Shown: positions 3,186 to 22,611 of the stretch, piece by piece | Layout: the number at the start of each line of letters is the position of its first letter | Numbering within the stretch: position 1 is the stretch's first letter | Source of the DNA: Escherichia phage vB_Eco_BCPEco_001 | Direction: 5' to 3' (one strand) | Length of the DNA: 64,000 bases | Sequence record: PV295200.1 | Made by a program: the position numbers and the translations under genes | The notes under the pieces: model-generated | What the model was told of the DNA's origin: nothing | Database searches by the model: none | Seen by the model: only the letters and a program-made list of their open reading frames with translations

Positions 3186-5164
3186 TGTGATATAGGCTCC
3201 AAATCGATAGTTAAGTATTGCGGACGTAAATCATTTTCAAATACAATCAGTGAACCATCACGGGTAAAGATAACATCATCGGTTGGGTCAGAATATAATT
3301 CAATAGTCTGAACCTCAAATTTTTCAGATGTTAAATTAATTTTAGCGATATTCCAATAAATCATGTCAGTCGGATAATTTATTTCACCGATAACATAGTA
3401 TTTGTCGCGTCCATCAGAATTTGCTAATTTATTAAAATCATTGCCTGTATATGGCTGAATGTTTTCATTTTCTGTAACATCGCCAGAAGCAAATGGACCA
3501 ATAATAACTTTACCAATTCCTTTAGAATCTCGGTCTGTTGATACTATACGAACATCATATAATACATCTTCTTCTAAACCAGTATCAGGATTTACAACCT
3601 TTCGTCCAGAATTAAATGAAAACGTATTAGATTCCATAGAACGATCTTTTATTTGATTATTATATTTAATACCCGCTTCAGGCGTTTTATAGAAGTTTTG
3701 TACTTCACGAACCATTTGAATAGTCGCTGATGAACCAATGACAGAATGATCTGCATCATCTACATATGTCAACATCTTAGATTTAGCGAAAGACGAGTTA
3801 AAAATTTCTACATCTTCGGTATAATAGCGATCAATTTTATCAATTATTTGACCTTCAAGCCACTGTTCGGATTCTTGCAGCTTATTTAAAGCATATGTGA
3901 CTTTTAAATTAGTCTTAATAAAAAGGTAATTAGGAGAAATAATTGATGGTGTAATAGGAGCTAAATTATAGTCTTTGAGATAATTTTTAATATCTTCACG
4001 CTGTACGGTAGTTAAATACAGACCTGATTTAGGTTTAGCAGCAATAAATGCATACCCAGGTTTAGTAGAATCAGTGAAAGTTTGAACAGCTTGAATAATA
4101 GAACCAAATCTCTCTGAAACGAATGTATCATAGTCAGTCGCAGTTACGCATCGTTGCTGGGTTTCGCGTTTAATAGTACCCAATTCGCGAATACGCTCAA
4201 TATCTTCTGGATCACCGCCTCCATCTGCCCCAACAAAATCTGGGTCACCGTTTGGATTTTCATTAATATTGATGACAGTTATATTTGTTAATGTGTCTGC
4301 GTATGAAAATCCGACTGCTCCGTTCGCGTCAGCACCATTAGTACTAATGTACTCAATAACAATCGTAGAGTTCTGAGTAGGTTTAAGACCTCCAATATAA
4401 TTAGCAGTCAAAGCTCCTTCAGAAGCATTAACAGAAATTTCACCTTCACCAAAATAGAATTCAGTGTTTCCATCAATAGTTTCACGCATATAGTAAATCG
4501 TTGATGTTGAACCAGCATGAACCATTGACTTTCTCGTCCAGTTAATCCATTCCGCTCCATCAACATATAATTTAACCTGGTTTCTATCAATATTTTTATC
4601 ATAAATGATAATAGGTGTTAATTTATCATAAATGATTTCAGTTCTTACTATACGTCCCTGGGCCAATTTTAAACGTGGAAAATATTGGTTATTTTTATCA
4701 CGAATAGCAATAACGTCTTCGGTAGAAACGAAGTTATATGGATTAACAGAAGTATCTTTTGCATATGCTAAAAAGCGAGTTCCGCGAGGAATTGTAATGT
4801 AATTCCTATTCAATGCGTCGGTGCATGTTAACATAATTTCGGTTTGCGCAGCGGATTTTGAAGTAGGTAAATATCCGTTATCTTGTGCAGCTTGAACAAC
4901 TGAGCTTCGTAAGTTAGCAGTACGCATAAAGCTTTCATATACAGCAGCATTACCAAACTGCTGAATGTACAGCGTATTATAAGCCAAAAGGTCACACAGA
5001 ACGTTTAATCTTGAGCCTTCAAAATCATAATCCAAAAATTCATTTTGGCCATTAAGCCATTCAATGAGGTTTTGTTTTATTTCAGCAAACGTACCCCCGA
5101 CGAATATCTCGGGAATAGCATTTGCTGTTCTTGTTAATTGATAATTTACAGGGGTATTTGCCAT
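3182..5164 (-). CDS. 6: baseplate wedge protein gp6
   Basis: 660 aa ORF, same length as T4 gp6; ATGA overlap with gene 7. Confidence 0.85.
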   Translation of the reverse strand: MANTPVNYQLTRTANAIPEIFVGGTFAEIKQNLIEWLNGQNEFLDYDFEGSRLNVLCDLLAYNTLYIQQFGNAAVYESFMRTANLRSSVVQAAQDNGYLPTSKSAAQTEIMLTCTDALNRNYITIPRGTRFLAYAKDTSVNPYNFVSTEDVIAIRDKNNQYFPRLKLAQGRIVRTEIIYDKLTPIIIYDKNIDRNQVKLYVDGAEWINWTRKSMVHAGSTSTIYYMRETIDGNTEFYFGEGEISVNASEGALTANYIGGLKPTQNSTIVIEYISTNGADANGAVGFSYADTLTNITVININENPNGDPDFVGADGGGDPEDIERIRELGTIKRETQQRCVTATDYDTFVSERFGSIIQAVQTFTDSTKPGYAFIAAKPKSGLYLTTVQREDIKNYLKDYNLAPITPSIISPNYLFIKTNLKVTYALNKLQESEQWLEGQIIDKIDRYYTEDVEIFNSSFAKSKMLTYVDDADHSVIGSSATIQMVREVQNFYKTPEAGIKYNNQIKDRSMESNTFSFNSGRKVVNPDTGLEEDVLYDVRIVSTDRDSKGIGKVIIGPFASGDVTENENIQPYTGNDFNKLANSDGRDKYYVIGEINYPTDMIYWNIAKINLTSEKFEVQTIELYSDPTDDVIFTRDGSLIVFENDLRPQYLTIDLEPISQ

Positions 5165-5172
5165 TTTAAATC

Positions 5173-5466
5173 CTATTTAATGAATACTTTAGATGATGCC
5201 TGAGCCACAGTATCACCACATGATATTGGATCAGCCATTTGAACAGCTTTCTTTCCAGTGACATATACCTTAGAAGTTCTGGGTTGTGTCACTCCGCCAT
5301 GTGTTTCATATGGCTTTTTAATTTCTGTATGTTCTGTAATTGGATCGCCTTCTACTAGAACAGCAATTCCTCCAGTGAATACTTTACTTTGCGTAGCATT
5401 CACAACTGTTGGAGGCCACGCTTCATGGCCAGCAGTAACACACTTATCATAACTCAATCCTGACAT
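5173..5466 (-). CDS. 5.4: gp5.4 PAAR-repeat spike tip protein
   Basis: 97 aa, same size as T4 gp5.4; Gly/Val/Thr-rich PAAR-like composition; sits between gene 5 and gene 6. Confidence 0.7.
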
Positions 5467-6050
5467 TTATAATACCCCGCTTTAACTCGCCCCTTTAAGG
5501 TACTATAATTTATATTAAGAGCTTTAGCTGCGATTTTAATACTTTTATATAAAACGCCGTTGATAATAACAGATTTAGCATTAGGGGCTATTTTGCCATA
5601 CCTTGGGTTATTGGCGCCACACATCTTCAGAGTTTTACCTCTAGGCCCTCTAGGCCCTCTTTTTCTAGACGATTTAATGCTAATTTTCAATCTAGTTTCA
5701 CGCGAATGAGATTTACCGTAAAATCCATTTTTAGCACCCGCTGTGTTATGTTTTGGGAAGCCACCGATACCGCCTAGTTTCATATTATAAGTTTTCTTAG
5801 ATTTAACAAATTCCTCTGTGACTATTTCTGCCTCTGCGTCATACATAGCTTTTTCAGATTCAAAGAATTTTATAATATGCTTATAAAAATTATCTATGCC
5901 ATATTTTTTAATGGCATTTTTAATGGCAACGCCAGAACCCATATACCCATCATCCAAATTTGAAGTTTTGTGGACGCCTACATAAATTTTTCCTGTTGTT
6001 TTATTAGTTATTGAATACAAATAAAAATATTTATGGTCTTGCATAGGCAT
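5454..6050 (-). CDS. GIY-YIG homing endonuclease (Seg-like), free-standing
   Basis: 198 aa; N-terminal motif [20 protein letters not shown] (GIY-YIG core); basic C-terminal region; overlaps both flanking genes. Confidence 0.7.
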
Positions 6051-10871: not shown

Positions 10872-11596
10872 ATGAAACTAATCTTTTTAAGCGGTGTAAA
10901 GCGTAGTGGAAAAGATACTACTGCTGATTTTATCATGAGCAATTATTCTGCAGTTAAATACCAACTTGCTGGTCCTATTAAGGATGCATTGGCTTATGCA
11001 TGGGGAGTATTTGCTGCAAATACCGACTATCCTTGCTTAACTCGTAAAGAGTTTGAAGGAATTGACTATGATCGTGAGACTAATTTAAATCTGACTAAAT
11101 TAGAAGTAATCACGATTATGGAACAAGCATTTTGCTATCTTAATGGTAAAAGCCCAATTAAAGGTGTGTTTGTTTTTGATGACGAAGGAAAAGAATCAGT
11201 TAATTTCGTAGCATTTAATAAGATTGCTGACGTTATAAATAATATTGAAGATCAATGGTCAGTCCGTCGTCTGATGCAAGCCCTAGGTACGGATTTGATT
11301 GTTAATAACTTCGACCGCATGTACTGGGTAAAATTATTTGCTTTAGATTATCTTGATAAATTTAACTCAGGTTATGATTATTATATCGTTCCTGATACCC
11401 GTCAAGATCATGAAATGGATGCGGCTAGGGCGATGGGTGCTACAGTAATTCATGTAGTTCGTCCTGGTCAAAAATCCAATGATACACATATTACAGAAGC
11501 TGGATTGCCAATTCGTGATGGCGATTTAGTAATTACAAACGATGGTTCTCTTGAAGAACTTTTTTCTAAAATTAAAAATACACTAAAGGTACTATA

Positions 11597-11597: not shown

Positions 11598-12281
<684 letters not shown>

Positions 12282-12282
<1 letters not shown>

Positions 12283-12324
12283 TTTCACAAAGTTGTTTAC
12301 ATACTGATGAGGTAGTGATACTAT
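12282..12324 (+). promoter_or_regulatory. early sigma70-type promoter (UP element TTTCACAAA, -35 GTTTACA, -10 TACTAT) with the -10 inside an inverted repeat
   Basis: aatttcacaaagttgtttacata...gaggtagtgatactattacctc; 17-nt spacer. Confidence 0.6.
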
Positions 12325-12355
12325 TACCTCATCAAAATTAATTAGGAAAATAAAA

Positions 12356-12613
12356 ATGAAAACTTTCAAAGAGTTTGCTACAAAAACTACTATCACTGAA
12401 TCTTCCCACGGTATGGAAGTAAAGCTTGGAATGGCTTTAGCTGAAGCTGAGCGTCTTTTCTCTCGTATTAAAGAACTTGCTGCTGCGGTCGATCCTTCAT
12501 CTTTTAAAGGAGACCAAACTAAAGTTAAAGCACTTTTAGCATTATGCTCCGATGCAGGAGAAATTGCTAAAAATGGTTCTAAGATGAAGAAACGATTAGA
12601 AGATTTAAAATAA
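12356..12613 (+). CDS. internal protein (ipI-like) with capsid targeting sequence
   Basis: 85 aa; N-terminal MKTFKEFATKTTITE resembles the T4 internal-protein capsid targeting sequence MKTYQEFIAE with an LxE-type cleavage site; own early promoter. Confidence 0.65.
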   Translation: MKTFKEFATKTTITESSHGMEVKLGMALAEAERLFSRIKELAAAVDPSSFKGDQTKVKALLALCSDAGEIAKNGSKMKKRLEDLK

Positions 12614-12655
12614 TTTCACAAAGTTGTTTACATAGGGTTTTAGTTGTGATACTAT
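12612..12655 (+). promoter_or_regulatory. early promoter, near-identical repeat of the 12282 promoter
   Basis: taatttcacaaagttgtttacatagggttttagttgtgatactattaccct; -35 and -10 spaced 17 nt. Confidence 0.6.
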
Positions 12656-12689
12656 TACCCTATCAAAACAAAACCAAATGGAAATCAAA

Positions 12690-12923
12690 ATGAAAACTTT
12701 CAAAGAGTTTATCGCTGAAACTGCTGATGTAAAAGTTGAGTTTATTTACACTGGCAAGAAAGATAAAATGGGTGAAATGCCTCATGGAGTTCTTCGTGAT
12801 GCATTAGATAATTTCGGTCAACTCGCCGCAGAAGATTACGGTGATAAAATTGTTGTTACTGGTCCTGCTGCAGTTATTGAAAAATGGGCAGCAGAAAATA
12901 AATCAATTTTTCGTAAAAAATAA
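12690..12923 (+). CDS. internal protein (ip-like) with capsid targeting sequence
   Basis: 77 aa from MKTFKEFIAE TADVKVE...; a possible 4-codon extension (MEIKM) would start at 12678. Confidence 0.65.
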   Translation: MKTFKEFIAETADVKVEFIYTGKKDKMGEMPHGVLRDALDNFGQLAAEDYGDKIVVTGPAAVIEKWAAENKSIFRKK

Positions 12924-12953
12924 GTTTACTTTTAGATGGGGTAGTGATACTAT
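12910..12953 (+). promoter_or_regulatory. early promoter, third copy of the hairpin-embedded -10 module
   Basis: gtttacttttagatggggtagtgatactattaccctatc. Confidence 0.5.
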
Positions 12954-12981
12954 TACCCTATCAACTATTGAGGAGAATAAA

Positions 12982-13167
12982 ATGAAACGTTGTGAATTAA
13001 TTCGAAATGTTGCTATTGCAATTTCTGCTTCTGCTTTCAGTTTTTCAATGTTTGTTGGATTTATATGCGGATTATTAACTACAGCAGAAAATGTGTTTTC
13101 ACTTGTAGTAGCATTTTTAATTGGTTTAATCGCTATTGTTACGGATAAAATTTCTAAAGGTGAATAA
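12982..13167 (+). CDS. small membrane protein
   Basis: 61 aa from MKRCELIRN with SD GAGGAG; one long hydrophobic stretch; no capsid targeting sequence. Confidence 0.4.
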   Translation: MKRCELIRNVAIAISASAFSFSMFVGFICGLLTTAENVFSLVVAFLIGLIAIVTDKISKGE

Positions 13168-13951: not shown

Positions 13952-14024
13952 TTGGGAATTAGCCAAGTTGGTAAGGCATAGCACTTTGACTGCTAGATGC
14001 AAAGGTTCGAGTCCTTTATTCCCA
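13952..14024 (+). tRNA. tRNA-Gln (anticodon UUG)
   Basis: Cloverleaf folded by hand: acceptor tgggaat/attccca, anticodon loop ctTTGac, T-loop ggttcgagtcc; CCA not encoded. Confidence 0.85.
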
Positions 14025-14025
14025 G

Positions 14026-14112
14026 CGCGAGAATGGTCAAATTGGTAAAGACACAGCACTTAAAATGCTGCGGAATGATTTCCTTGTGGGTTCGAGTCCC
14101 ACTTCTCGTACC
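14026..14112 (+). tRNA. tRNA-Leu (anticodon UAA), long variable arm, CCA encoded
   Basis: Acceptor gcgagaa/ttctcgt; anticodon loop ctTAAaa; T-loop ggttcgagtcc; 3' acca. Confidence 0.85.
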
Positions 14113-14118
14113 AAAGTT

Positions 14119-14191
<73 letters not shown>

Positions 14192-14202
14192 AAATTTAAT
14201 TT

Positions 14203-14276
14203 ACTTCGTGTAGCTCAGTTTGGTAGAGCGTCTGCTTTGGGAGCAGAATGTCGCAGGTTCAAATCCTGCCGCGGAG
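14203..14276 (+). tRNA. tRNA-Pro (anticodon UGG)
   Basis: Acceptor cttcgtg/cgcggag with G-U pairs; anticodon stem tctgc/gcaga, loop ttTGGga; T-loop ggttcaaatcc. Confidence 0.8.
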
Positions 14277-14278
14277 AC

Positions 14279-14366
14279 TGGAGGCGTGGCAGAGTGGTTT
14301 AATGCACCGGTCTTGAAAACCGGCAGTCGCTCCGGCGACTCATAGGTTCAAATCCTATCGCCTCCG
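14279..14366 (+). tRNA. tRNA-Ser (anticodon UGA), long variable arm
   Basis: Acceptor ggaggcg/cgcctcc; anticodon loop ctTGAaa; T-loop ggttcaaatcc. Confidence 0.85.
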
Positions 14367-14373
14367 TAATTTC

Positions 14374-14446
14374 GCTGATTTAGCTCAGTAGGTAGAGCAA
14401 CTCACTTGTAATGAGAAGGTCGGCGGTTCGATTCCGTCAATCAGCA
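14374..14446 (+). tRNA. tRNA-Thr (anticodon UGU)
   Basis: Acceptor gctgatt/aatcagc; anticodon loop ctTGTaa; T-loop ggttcgattcc. Confidence 0.85.
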
Positions 14447-14452
14447 TATCAA

Positions 14453-14524
14453 GGCCCTGTAGCTGGAAGGTTCAAGCAAGCGACTCATAATCGCCAGATG
14501 GTGGTTCAATTCCACCCAGGGCCA
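14453..14524 (+). tRNA. tRNA with CAU anticodon (Ile by homology to the T4 lysidine-modified tRNA-Ile; Met by anticodon alone)
   Basis: Acceptor ggccctg/cagggcc; anticodon loop ctCATaa; T-loop ggttcaattcc. Confidence 0.75.
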
Positions 14525-14565
14525 TATTTTGAGAACATAAATACTCTTAGAAATAGGAGATATTT

Positions 14566-15231
14566 ATGTTCTATTACATTTATAAAATAACAAATAAAAT
14601 TAATAATAAAATCTATATAGGCGCTCATTCTACCGAAAATTTAGATGATGGATATATGGGTTCTGGTAAATTATTAAAAAGAGCCCAAGATAAGTATGGT
14701 ATAGAAAATTTTTCTAAAGAAATATTAGAGTATTTTGACGATAAAACCTCTATGTTTGAGTCAGAAAAGAATATTGTGGCTGAAGAGTTTTTAAAGCGCC
14801 CTGATGTTTATAATTTGAAATTAGGTGGTGAAGGTGGTTGGGACCATTTAAACACTAAAGAATATTTGGATAAAAAGAAAGAAGCTTCCTTAAAAGGAGC
14901 TGCCGCTTTTAAAACCAGATTTGAGAACGACCCAGACCTTAAAGAAAAATATCGTAAAATGGGTTCAGAAAGGTTTAAACAGCTTTGGGATAATCCTAAG
15001 TATAGAGAGAAATTTTTAAATACTAAATCTTTCTTGGGTAAGACCCATACTCCTGAAACTATTAATAAAATGAAAGAATCTCACGCCAGAAATAAACACC
15101 AACAAGGTGAAAAGAATTCCCAATTTGGTATGATGTGGATTCATTCATTAGATGAAAAAGTTTCTAAACGTATTAAGAAAACTGACCCAATTCCAGAAGG
15201 ATGGTTTAAAGGTCGAAAAATGAAATTTTAA
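14566..15231 (+). CDS. segB: GIY-YIG homing endonuclease SegB, embedded in the tRNA cluster
   Basis: 221 aa, same size and position as T4 segB (between the tRNA subclusters); GIY-YIG motif [20 protein letters not shown]. Confidence 0.8.
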   Translation: MFYYIYKITNKINNKIYIGAHSTENLDDGYMGSGKLLKRAQDKYGIENFSKEILEYFDDKTSMFESEKNIVAEEFLKRPDVYNLKLGGEGGWDHLNTKEYLDKKKEASLKGAAAFKTRFENDPDLKEKYRKMGSERFKQLWDNPKYREKFLNTKSFLGKTHTPETINKMKESHARNKHQQGEKNSQFGMMWIHSLDEKVSKRIKKTDPIPEGWFKGRKMKF

Positions 15232-15233
15232 TT

Positions 15234-15310
<77 letters not shown>

Positions 15311-15629
15311 AAACAAGAAGCCGGGTCGCTACCGGCAAGTCGTCGGACTGATGTTCCCTGAGTAAGGACTGGCATTAATAAATCTTTATGTTTTGTTAAT
15401 GCCCCCTTATATCACAGCAGAAACGGCGCACCGAATTATCGATTCGAGGAAATATCTTTGCCGTAAGCCGAGTAGCGTTTTTGACGGAACGTTCGGATAT
15501 GGTCAAGATATGGCCTTTTAAAAATATTGAGTAGCGTCAACTGCTTAATAACCGGGTTCGAATCCCGGCGTTTCGTACAAACACTTGCCTTAGCAGGTGG
15601 AACCCCGACAAGGTTGCCGCAAGGCTCAG
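15311..15629 (+). ncRNA. stable small RNA region (T4 species 1/2, rnaC/rnaD-like) downstream of tRNA-Arg, with a tRNA-like T-arm
   Basis: No ORF; GC-rich structured sequence; tRNA-like arm ccgggttcgaatcccgg at about 15560-15576; position matches T4 stable RNAs C/D; boundaries approximate. Confidence 0.45.
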
Positions 15630-16125: not shown

Positions 16126-16180
16126 GTTTACATAGGCTCATGATTGAGATATTATGAGCCCATAATTTGAGGAGAACATT

Positions 16181-16516
16181 ATGAAACGTAACTTTAGTAA
16201 AGCTTTTTGTAATCGAAATTATTATCCTGAAGAGCTTTTTGAATCTAAGGAATTTAAAGAGTTTAACGAACGTTCTCAAAACATGCCTGTACAATGGGTA
16301 TTGGATTATGCTAACCGTATCTTTGAAGGCGTGCGGGATATTTGTCCTGATGATGAAGCTCCTTATTTTAAAAAGGCTTGGGAACTTGCTAACCAAGCAT
16401 ATATCAATGCTTTAGAATCTTCTAAAGGCACTGACGATGATTTTACTTTATTGGCTATCAATGATGCCGTTATCGAGGCCATCGACGTCTTTATCGATGA
16501 GCTAGATGAAGAATAA
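16181..16516 (+). CDS. hypothetical acidic protein
   Basis: 111 aa; SD GAGGAG; upstream promoter with -10 inside the inverted repeat ggctcat...atgagcc. Confidence 0.5.
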   Translation: MKRNFSKAFCNRNYYPEELFESKEFKEFNERSQNMPVQWVLDYANRIFEGVRDICPDDEAPYFKKAWELANQAYINALESSKGTDDDFTLLAINDAVIEAIDVFIDELDEE

Positions 16517-19433: not shown

Positions 19434-19964
<531 letters not shown>

Positions 19965-20023
19965 AGTTGTTTACTTTCTCCTAGAATTGTGATAGTATAT
20001 TCACAGTTACTTGGAGGGATAAA

Positions 20024-20440
20024 ATGACTCGTATTAATTTGACTTTAGTATCTGAACTTGCTGATCAACATTTAATCGCAGAATACCGTGAATTGCCGCG
20101 TGTTTTTGGTATAGTTCGTAAGCATGTGGCAAACGGTAAGCGCGTTAAAGATTTTAAAATATCTTCTAAATTTATTTTAGGTTCTGGTCATGTTACTTTC
20201 TTTTACGATAAGTTAGAATTTTTGCGAAAGCGTCAATCGGACATTATAACGGAATGCTTAAAACGCGGGTTCAGTATAAAAGATACTGAAGTTCCTGACA
20301 TCAGCGATATTCCAGCAGAATGGAAAAATGATTATAACCCATGCAAATCGGCTATTAAATTGAGTCAACAACGACTCGATGAAAAAATTTTAATGAAGCC
20401 ACACTGGTATAAATACTACGGCAAAAATATTTACATTTAA
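20024..20440 (+). CDS. denV: endonuclease V (pyrimidine dimer DNA glycosylase)
   Basis: 138 aa; [17 protein letters not shown]...[11 protein letters not shown] matches T4 DenV from memory. Confidence 0.9.
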
Positions 20441-22582: not shown

Positions 22583-22611
22583 TTTACTTTTCCTCTTGAC
22601 TGTGGTATAAT
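22583..22611 (+). promoter_or_regulatory. early promoter (-35 GTTTAC, extended -10 TGTGGTATAAT) upstream of regB
   Basis: tgtttacttttcctcttgactgtggtataat. Confidence 0.55.

Follow-up and report, generated by a model that had tools for sequence, protein, structure and literature searches.

An ipI-type internal-protein locus carrying ip5 and ip6 in a T-even phage, with a promoter-hairpin block ahead of each gene

T4 internal proteins (IPs) are said to have been described by Bair et al. 2007 and Rifat et al. 2008 as injected inhibitors of GmrSD, and Repoila et al. 1994 reportedly found ten IP-type open reading frames (ORFs), along with a conserved leader of 11 residues and conserved 70-bp blocks that include an early promoter. 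Arbiol et al. 2010 (PMC2839356) credit the repeated promoter blocks of the IP locus, as elements like the promoter-early stem-loop (PeSL) cassettes, to Repoila et al. 1994, whose findings are restated by Comeau et al. 2014 (PMC4122927). T4 Ip1 inhibits GmrSD of strain CT596, and, according to Silas et al. 2025 (PMC12373910), two other enzymes of the GmrSD type are the strictly specific targets of Ip2 and Ip3. Here, we analyzed a 64,000-nucleotide (nt) stretch of Escherichia phage vB_Eco_BCPEco_001 (PV295200.1; hereafter, the window), in which positions 12282-13167 hold three small plus-strand ORFs of 85, 77, and 61 aa. Our data support the conclusion that these positions are the ipI-type IP locus of a T-even phage, here carrying ip5 and ip6 as T6 and PST do, and we put the probability of this explanation as a whole at about 0.85.

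The locus has a 100% identical counterpart in Salmonella phage vB_Sen_BCPSen_003 and counterparts of 98-99.6% identity in many Tequatrovirus genomes (the window itself is Tequatrovirus), and at least 157 phage records cover at least 80% of a 1051-bp query spanning it. More specifically, Ip5 is 100% identical to both RB15 Ip5 and T6 Ip5, and Ip6 is 97% identical to PST ipVI, 96% to its T6 counterpart, and 75% to ip6 of VR7 and VR25; PHROGs labels the two families "internal head protein" and "internal virion protein," respectively. The third gene is T4 trna.4, for which PHROGs gives "unknown function." Genes in the window run in the order gp3, gp1, 57A, 57B, ip5, ip6, trna.4, trna.3-like, trna.2-like, tRNAs, and segB-like, which from 57B onward matches the PST order (57B-ipV-ipVI-tRNA.4-tRNA.3-tRNA.2) gene for gene; T4 has 57B-ipI-trna.4 at the corresponding place. 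Of the two polymorphic IP loci, 57B-trna.4 and e-denV, it is thus the first that houses both ip5 and ip6. The genes concerned are as follows.

12356-12613, plus strand: ip5, 85 aa; propeptide with targeting sequence at 12356-12400 (MKTFKEFATKTTITE) and predicted gp21 cleavage after ITE15
12690-12923, plus strand: ip6 (ipVI), 77 aa; targeting sequence MKTFKEFIAE at 12690-12719 and predicted cleavage after IAE10
12982-13167, plus strand: trna.4, 61 aa; hydrophobic predicted membrane protein without a targeting sequence (phrog_1692; grand average of hydropathy, +1.18)
11824-12282, plus strand: gene 57B, of the Acb1 anti-CBASS phosphodiesterase family (Pfam PF23474, E = 2.7e-60), positioned as T4 57B

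Ahead of each of the three small genes stands one ~70-bp block, laid out as an AT-rich stretch, GTTTAC, N14, GTGATACTATTACC, and a leader. The blocks form a 71-nt direct-repeat family, with 86% identity for copy 2 and 66% for copy 3.

12267-12337, plus strand: repeat copy 1; AT-rich block, -35 GTTTAC at 12295-12300, TGn, -10 TACTAT at 12319-12324, hairpin at 12305-12334
12598-12668, plus strand: repeat copy 2; -35 GTTTAC at 12626-12631, -10 at 12650-12655, hairpin at 12632-12663
12896-12966, plus strand: repeat copy 3; -35 GTTTAC at 12924-12929, -10 at 12948-12953, hairpin at 12935-12962

GTTTAC-N14-GTGATACTATTACC has exactly three matches in the 64 kb (12295, 12626, and 12924, all on the plus strand), against a chance expectation of 0.01, and three or more matches were reached in 0 of 100 shuffles. 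A sequence-only reading of the window had claimed that three consecutive small genes each follow their own promoter copy, and the repeats at 12267, 12598, and 12896 bear this out. That reading had also spoken of three cassettes, a description that holds for the promoters; the third gene, the conserved trna.4, is no variable cassette. The hexamers TTTAC(A/T)-N17-TACTAT with TGn are present in all three copies (12296-12324, 12627-12655, and 12925-12953), and the combination of UP, -35, TGn, and -10 is the T4 early promoter architecture (PMC2988021). Likewise, all three copies, with their AT-rich upstream block and downstream Shine-Dalgarno sequence and ATG, fit the PST/T4 PeSL promoter consensus TTTACW-N17-TAYWAT (PMC4122927). 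Copy 1 is base for base the element upstream of T4 ipI, and is also the RB15 ip5 element; the 5' arm of copy 2 is in another register than that of copy 1. As ipI RNA is early in T4 (PMC9697503), this identity agrees with the early type first assigned to these promoters. Each gene would then be served by a separate T4 early promoter, made up of an AT-rich UP-like block, GTTTAC, TGn, and TACTAT, and by a short leader with a Shine-Dalgarno sequence, and would be transcribed by host sigma-70 RNA polymerase immediately after infection. Another family, whose early promoters are nearly identical to one another (TTTACAAGACTGTTC.TCT.TGGTACTATACAACTATCAACT), occurs without the hairpin at least four times in the window (15790, 32928, 59045, and 30792, plus strand).

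A time-resolved study of T4 classes ipI, ipII, and ipIII as "early RNA, late protein," trna.4 as early RNA, and 57B as middle RNA (PMC9697503, supplementary files 4 and 6). Because the ip5 promoter is identical to that of T4 ipI, ipI-like timing is expected for ip5, and by this analogy early RNA with late protein would explain how a protein required for prohead assembly can be made from an early promoter. Dedicated late promoters for the IP genes were considered and dropped, as the perfect late-promoter motif TATAAATA has no copy between 57B and trna.4 and its nearest upstream plus-strand copy, at 11234, lies inside gene 1. The leaders differ with respect to GGAG, the motif cut by T4 RegB: it is present in the Shine-Dalgarno region of the trna.4 leader (12966-12981) and absent from the ip5 (12338-12355, AGGAAAA) and ip6 (12669-12689, TGGAAAT) leaders. 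GGAG-free leaders could allow the IP messages to stay translatable later; GGAG is present in the RB15 ip9 leader, so its absence is no rule for IP leaders.

As had been noticed from the sequence alone, an inverted repeat encloses the -10 hexamer in each of the three copies, with hairpin z-scores between -4.2 and -6.1. For copies 1, 2, and 3, the sense RNA hairpins reach -17.4, -13.7, and -16.1 kcal/mol (z-scores, -6.1, -4.2, and -4.3), and both the antisense RNA (-13.7, -11.9, and -7.6 kcal/mol) and the DNA form (-8.1, -5.5, and -4.9 kcal/mol) are weaker, because several of the pairs are G-U. Among 40 distinct elements drawn from the related loci, the 3' side of the -10 varies (TACCTC, TACCCT, AGCCCT, AGACCT, AACCCT, and CATCCT) and the spacer covaries with it, pairing being in one of two registers, with a short or a longer loop. 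Cognate arms formed a mean longest helix of 6.9 pairs versus 5.47 ± 0.29 for swapped arms, and 0 of 1000 swaps reached 6.9. In the 20 short-loop elements, 75% of cells were paired, compared with 70.3 ± 1.3% in shuffles (0 of 500) and 35-60% with the partner slid. Both-sided changes were observed at 7 of 13 pairs (e.g., AU in 11 and UA in 7 elements at columns 14-25, and AU, GC, and GU at two others). These comparisons argue, with moderate strength, that the hairpin is kept by compensatory changes. The feature is present at only 6 of 16 early-promoter-like sites in the window (the three described here, one at the second IP locus, and two more), and is therefore no general property of early promoters. 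The two further sites, both on the plus strand and outside the IP loci, lie at 16127-16155 (z, -4.2), just upstream of the ORF at 16181-16516, and at 22583-22611 (z, -3.3), each with the hairpin across the -10; the ten other early-promoter-like sites are without it.

The transcript of each gene should start ~7 nt past the -10, inside the 3' arm, so that the complete hairpin would exist only in RNA read through from upstream. In such RNA it would form a 3' stem-loop that attenuates, ends, or stabilizes the upstream message, and would thereby insulate each cassette transcriptionally. Homologous stems have been flagged as terminators by other annotators (WebGeSTer and TransTermHP). Weighing against this reading, the hairpins have no U-tract on their 3' side and a consensus terminator scan returned none in the locus, which makes classical intrinsic termination doubtful; moreover, because the compared sequences are related to one another, the covariation is only moderate evidence. 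Less probably, the hairpin would do more than insulate the cassettes, for instance by coupling promoter activity to read-through or by marking recombination points.

To compare the elements module by module, we aligned nine of them, taken from the window, T4, and RB15. The upstream block, the spacer with the 5' arm, and the leader behave as three kinds of module and are reassorted around an invariant core, GTGATA(C/T)TATTA(C/T)C. In the window, the ip6 element combines the upstream half of the T4 trna.4 and RB15 ip9 elements with the leader of RB15 ip8, and the trna.4 element combines the upstream half of RB15 ip8 with the leader of T4 trna.4; a T4 trna.4-type leader also precedes RB15 ip9. 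Such reassortment is the pattern expected of crossovers inside the conserved core. In 36 related loci, retrieved by way of 57B, the stretch from 57B to trna.4 held 0 to 5 ORFs bearing an intact or degenerate leader motif, consistent with the hypervariability claimed for this locus, and T4, RB15, and the window differ by whole cassettes bounded by elements. The ~70-bp blocks would thus offer co-infecting phages patches of homology, and cassettes would be swapped, added, or lost via crossovers in the invariant core GTGATACTATTAC, events that we infer from the mosaic pattern. Three relatives (L020, L021, and L023, at ~4456-5730 in each) have four to five leader-bearing ORFs back to back after 57B, with degenerate leaders (MKTFNELF and MQTFHEFL) and no promoter block between them, which suggests operon-like IP arrays, unlike the one-promoter-per-gene layout of the window.

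The variable region has conserved borders on both sides. On the right, trna.4 lies downstream of the IP genes in most of the 36 related loci; it is the conserved border, neither an internal protein nor a variable cassette, and this small conserved membrane protein would merely share the promoter type. On the left, the border is 57B, a full-length Acb1 family member that several database records label "RNA ligase" or "hypothetical." This known anti-defense gene adjoins the genes for the putatively injected proteins, standing directly upstream of ip5.

To address what ip5 and ip6 encode, we compared their products with the described internal proteins. The N-termini read MKTFKEFATK in Ip5, MKTFKEFIAE in Ip6, and MKTFKEFTST in T4 IPI (MKTFKEFTSTTTPVSTITE); across eight internal proteins (Ip5, Ip6, T4 IPI, IPII, and IPIII, and RB15 Ip7, Ip8, and Ip9), M1, K2, T3, and F7 are invariant and similarity is confined to the N-terminus. 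For T4 IPIII, the first 10 residues suffice for head incorporation, residues 4 and 7 act in targeting and residues 8 and 10 in processing, and gp21 cuts after L/I-x-E (PMC9026906). The sequence-only reading was thus correct to take the MKTFKEF(I/A) N-termini for the capsid targeting sequence, which experiments on IPIII have defined (PMC9026906). Ip6 has F4, F7, I8, and E10, with IAE at 8-10 followed by Thr11, as in IPII and IPIII. In Ip5, F4 and F7 are present and the first L/I-x-E is the ITE at 13-15, like the ITE of IPI; no Ip5 homologue departs from ITE-SSHG, not even one that is missing five linker residues. Judged from sequence, Ip5 and Ip6 therefore have the targeting sequence, the gp21 motif, and the location of T4-type internal proteins. 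The N-terminal sequence would direct both proteins into the scaffolding core, the gp21 prohead protease would trim Ip5 after ITE15 and Ip6 after IAE10, and, by the rules worked out for T4 IPIII and IPI, both would be packed with the DNA and injected.

The predicted mature proteins are of similar size, i.e., 70 aa and 7.5 kDa for Ip5 (isoelectric point [pI] 9.2, 13 K+R) and 67 aa and 7.4 kDa for Ip6 (near-neutral pI, 6.5). BLASTP gave no alignment between them even at E ≤ 100, which upholds the claim that their mature parts are unrelated. A large protein database search retrieved only close T-even relatives (5 for Ip5 and 11 for Ip6), and the alignments for structure prediction were therefore shallow. 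From these, AlphaFold predicted two long antiparallel helices (a helical hairpin) for Ip5 and a beta-alpha-beta-beta-alpha-beta, ferredoxin-like arrangement for Ip6, with predicted local distance difference test scores of 71 and 81.6, respectively. Structure prediction of the mature regions, proposed earlier as a check, thus yielded folds, but generic ones only and no informative homologues. For the Ip5 model, Foldseek hits were confined to de novo designs and generic antiparallel helical hairpins (best E, 0.47); matches to the LSD1 tower domain were not read as homology. Pfam returned sub-threshold noise only for the Ip5, Ip6, and trna.4 proteins, PADLOC nothing meaningful, and a sequence search of the PDB no match at E < 0.7.

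Family precedent, the location beside 57B/Acb1, and the pattern of variation suggest that Ip5 and Ip6 probably serve in anti-defense: once injected, they would most likely bind and block specific host nucleases or other defenses, as T4 Ip1-3 do GmrSD. They had been named anti-defense candidates from the sequence alone, and this matches the finding that T4 Ip1, Ip2, and Ip3 each inhibit a different GmrSD enzyme (PMC12373910). Several results weigh against such a role. A test of type IV restriction has in part been made in the literature, where ip4-10, including ip5 and ip6, showed no reproducible interaction with further GmrSD variants (PMC12373910, Supplementary Figure 9). T6 is blocked by leaky GmrSD-ECOR21 and needs added Ip3 to plaque on GmrSD-ECOR17 (PMC12373910); as T6 is sensitive despite carrying a 100% identical Ip5 and a 96% identical Ip6, these two enzymes are not the targets of Ip5 or Ip6. 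In addition, a literature search for virion proteomics returned nothing specific to Ip5 or Ip6, whose presence in the head is deduced from the targeting sequence. Neither protein showed sequence or fold similarity to a characterized GmrSD inhibitor.

Because ip4-10 were negative on the GmrSD variants and T6 is sensitive to GmrSD-ECOR17 and GmrSD-ECOR21, Ip5 and/or Ip6 may instead be injected inhibitors of a host defense outside the GmrSD type IV restriction family; we offer this only tentatively, and if it is true, the capsid-targeting route delivers a broader anti-defense range than is now documented. The main rival to an anti-defense role is a structural or DNA-associated one, in which packaged Ip5 and Ip6 would neutralize charge, organize DNA, or help ejection, and their variability would reflect relaxed constraint rather than an arms race. 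The basic character of mature Ip5, with its 13 K+R in 70 aa, would suit such a role, as would the contacts of T4 internal-protein lysines with DNA phosphates (PMC3012670), the want of a GmrSD target for ip4-10, and the generic predicted folds. Mature Ip6, however, is near neutral, specific GmrSD targets are now known for all three T4 internal proteins, and mature domains that are 75-100% identical within each family over hundreds of genomes do not look relaxed; we therefore consider a purely physical role improbable and retain anti-defense as the preferred function.

For the repeats themselves, two other explanations bear on the RNA stem-loop proposed above. The inverted repeat could act as DNA, either as the site of a dimeric regulator that shuts off the early promoters or as a cruciform or hairpin for recombination enzymes. 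It does overlap the core promoter, the typical place of an operator; Arbiol et al. speculate on a DNA-binding protein at PeSL stems and mapped crossovers in or beside the stem-loop, and the module junctions observed here fall in the repeat core. In contrast to what an operator would require, the arms differ between copies in one genome and change by compensatory substitution, which points to selection on structure rather than on operator sequence, and the G-U pairs weaken the DNA and antisense forms. As the arms covary rather than stay conserved, we rank a dimeric operator below the RNA stem-loop, and a DNA-level role of either kind appears unlikely. A recent local tandem duplication without functional meaning could account for the 86% identity of copies 1 and 2 over 71 nt and for the 82%-identical gene starts that follow, but the coding regions are unrelated past codon 10, the element stands beside different genes in T4, RB15, and numerous further phages, and the shared N-terminal motif is an experimentally defined targeting signal, which together make duplication alone scarcely credible. 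The RNA stem-loop thus remains our preferred account of the inverted repeat.

The second IP locus of the window is without an IP gene and consists of lysozyme e (19470-19964), one early promoter, and denV (20024-20440, plus strand). The element between e and denV (19970-19998) carries a -10-spanning inverted repeat, AATTGTGAtagtataTTCACAgTT. At the same place, T4 has ipIII and ipII, each flanked by similar elements, and the window element looks like a fusion of the outer T4 elements. The 64 kb hold just two leader-bearing ORFs, ip5 and ip6; as e-denV has no IP gene, Ip5 and Ip6 are the only leader-bearing proteins there. An Ip5 homologue (47.6% identity, MKTYSEFLSE) occupies e-denV in the Mosigvirus E. 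coli O157 typing phage 3 (L043, 1201-1482), where its ATG overlaps the e stop codon and it has no promoter of its own; this distant form occurs in ~228 records. Downstream of the cassettes, eight tRNA genes lie at 13953-15311 (plus strand; Gln, Leu, Gly, Pro, Ser, Thr, Met-CAT/Ile-type, and Arg), with a segB-like GIY-YIG homing endonuclease ORF (14566-15231, plus strand) inserted ahead of tRNA-Arg, as in T4. An Rfam scan returned nothing in the cassette region and only the downstream tRNAs.

The locus is thus real but already known: ip5 and ip6 received their names three decades ago, many genomes have them annotated as internal proteins, and the promoter-hairpin blocks and their role in cassette shuffling are already published, so that the window adds no new kind of element. 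What is added here is the count of compensatory changes in the -10-spanning hairpin, the map of module reassortment, the generic folds, and the IP-free e-denV locus. The locus is a documented example of T-even phages swapping small, self-expressed cassettes for DNA-delivered proteins, a process that matters for host range and for selecting therapeutic phages. As Ip5 occurs at ≥80% identity in ~270 sequenced phages (including T6 and T2) and Ip6 at ≥75% identity in ~230 (including T6), identifying their targets would account for some of the host range of a phage group that is very common.

Compared with known loci, the window has ip5-ip6 arranged as in PST; RB15 has ip5-ip9-ip7-ip8, T4 has ipI alone, and T6 encodes both Ip5 and Ip6 at adjacent coordinates. 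Flanking genes, ~70-bp promoter blocks, and the N-terminal leader motif are shared with the known ip5-ip6 loci, with no difference of substance. T4 ipI shares its locus and an identical promoter with ip5, and T4 IPI*, Ip2, and Ip3 share with Ip5 and Ip6 the targeting sequence, the cleavage logic, and a mature size of ~7-8 kDa. In contrast, there is no sequence similarity past the leader, and the published IPI* fold, two beta sheets flanked by N- and C-terminal helices, differs from the helical hairpin predicted for Ip5 and the ferredoxin-like fold predicted for Ip6.

Like PeSLs (Arbiol et al. 2010, PMC2839356; Comeau et al. 2014, PMC4122927), the window elements are composites in which an AT-rich block and an early promoter are joined to a stem-loop, a Shine-Dalgarno sequence, and a start codon; they lie between small accessory genes in a hyperplastic region and are linked to insertions, deletions, and replacements between close relatives. 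Arbiol et al. regard the IP-locus elements as analogues rather than homologues of the RB49 PeSLs, given their T4-type promoter, weaker AT-rich stems, and lack of polyG/polyC. The stem-loop straddles the -10 in the window, whereas it lies just upstream of the promoter in PST (PMC4122927, Fig. 3 legend), and, unlike in PeSLs, no U-tract follows the stem. With these differences, the window elements fit the published PeSL-like model of cassette shuffling.

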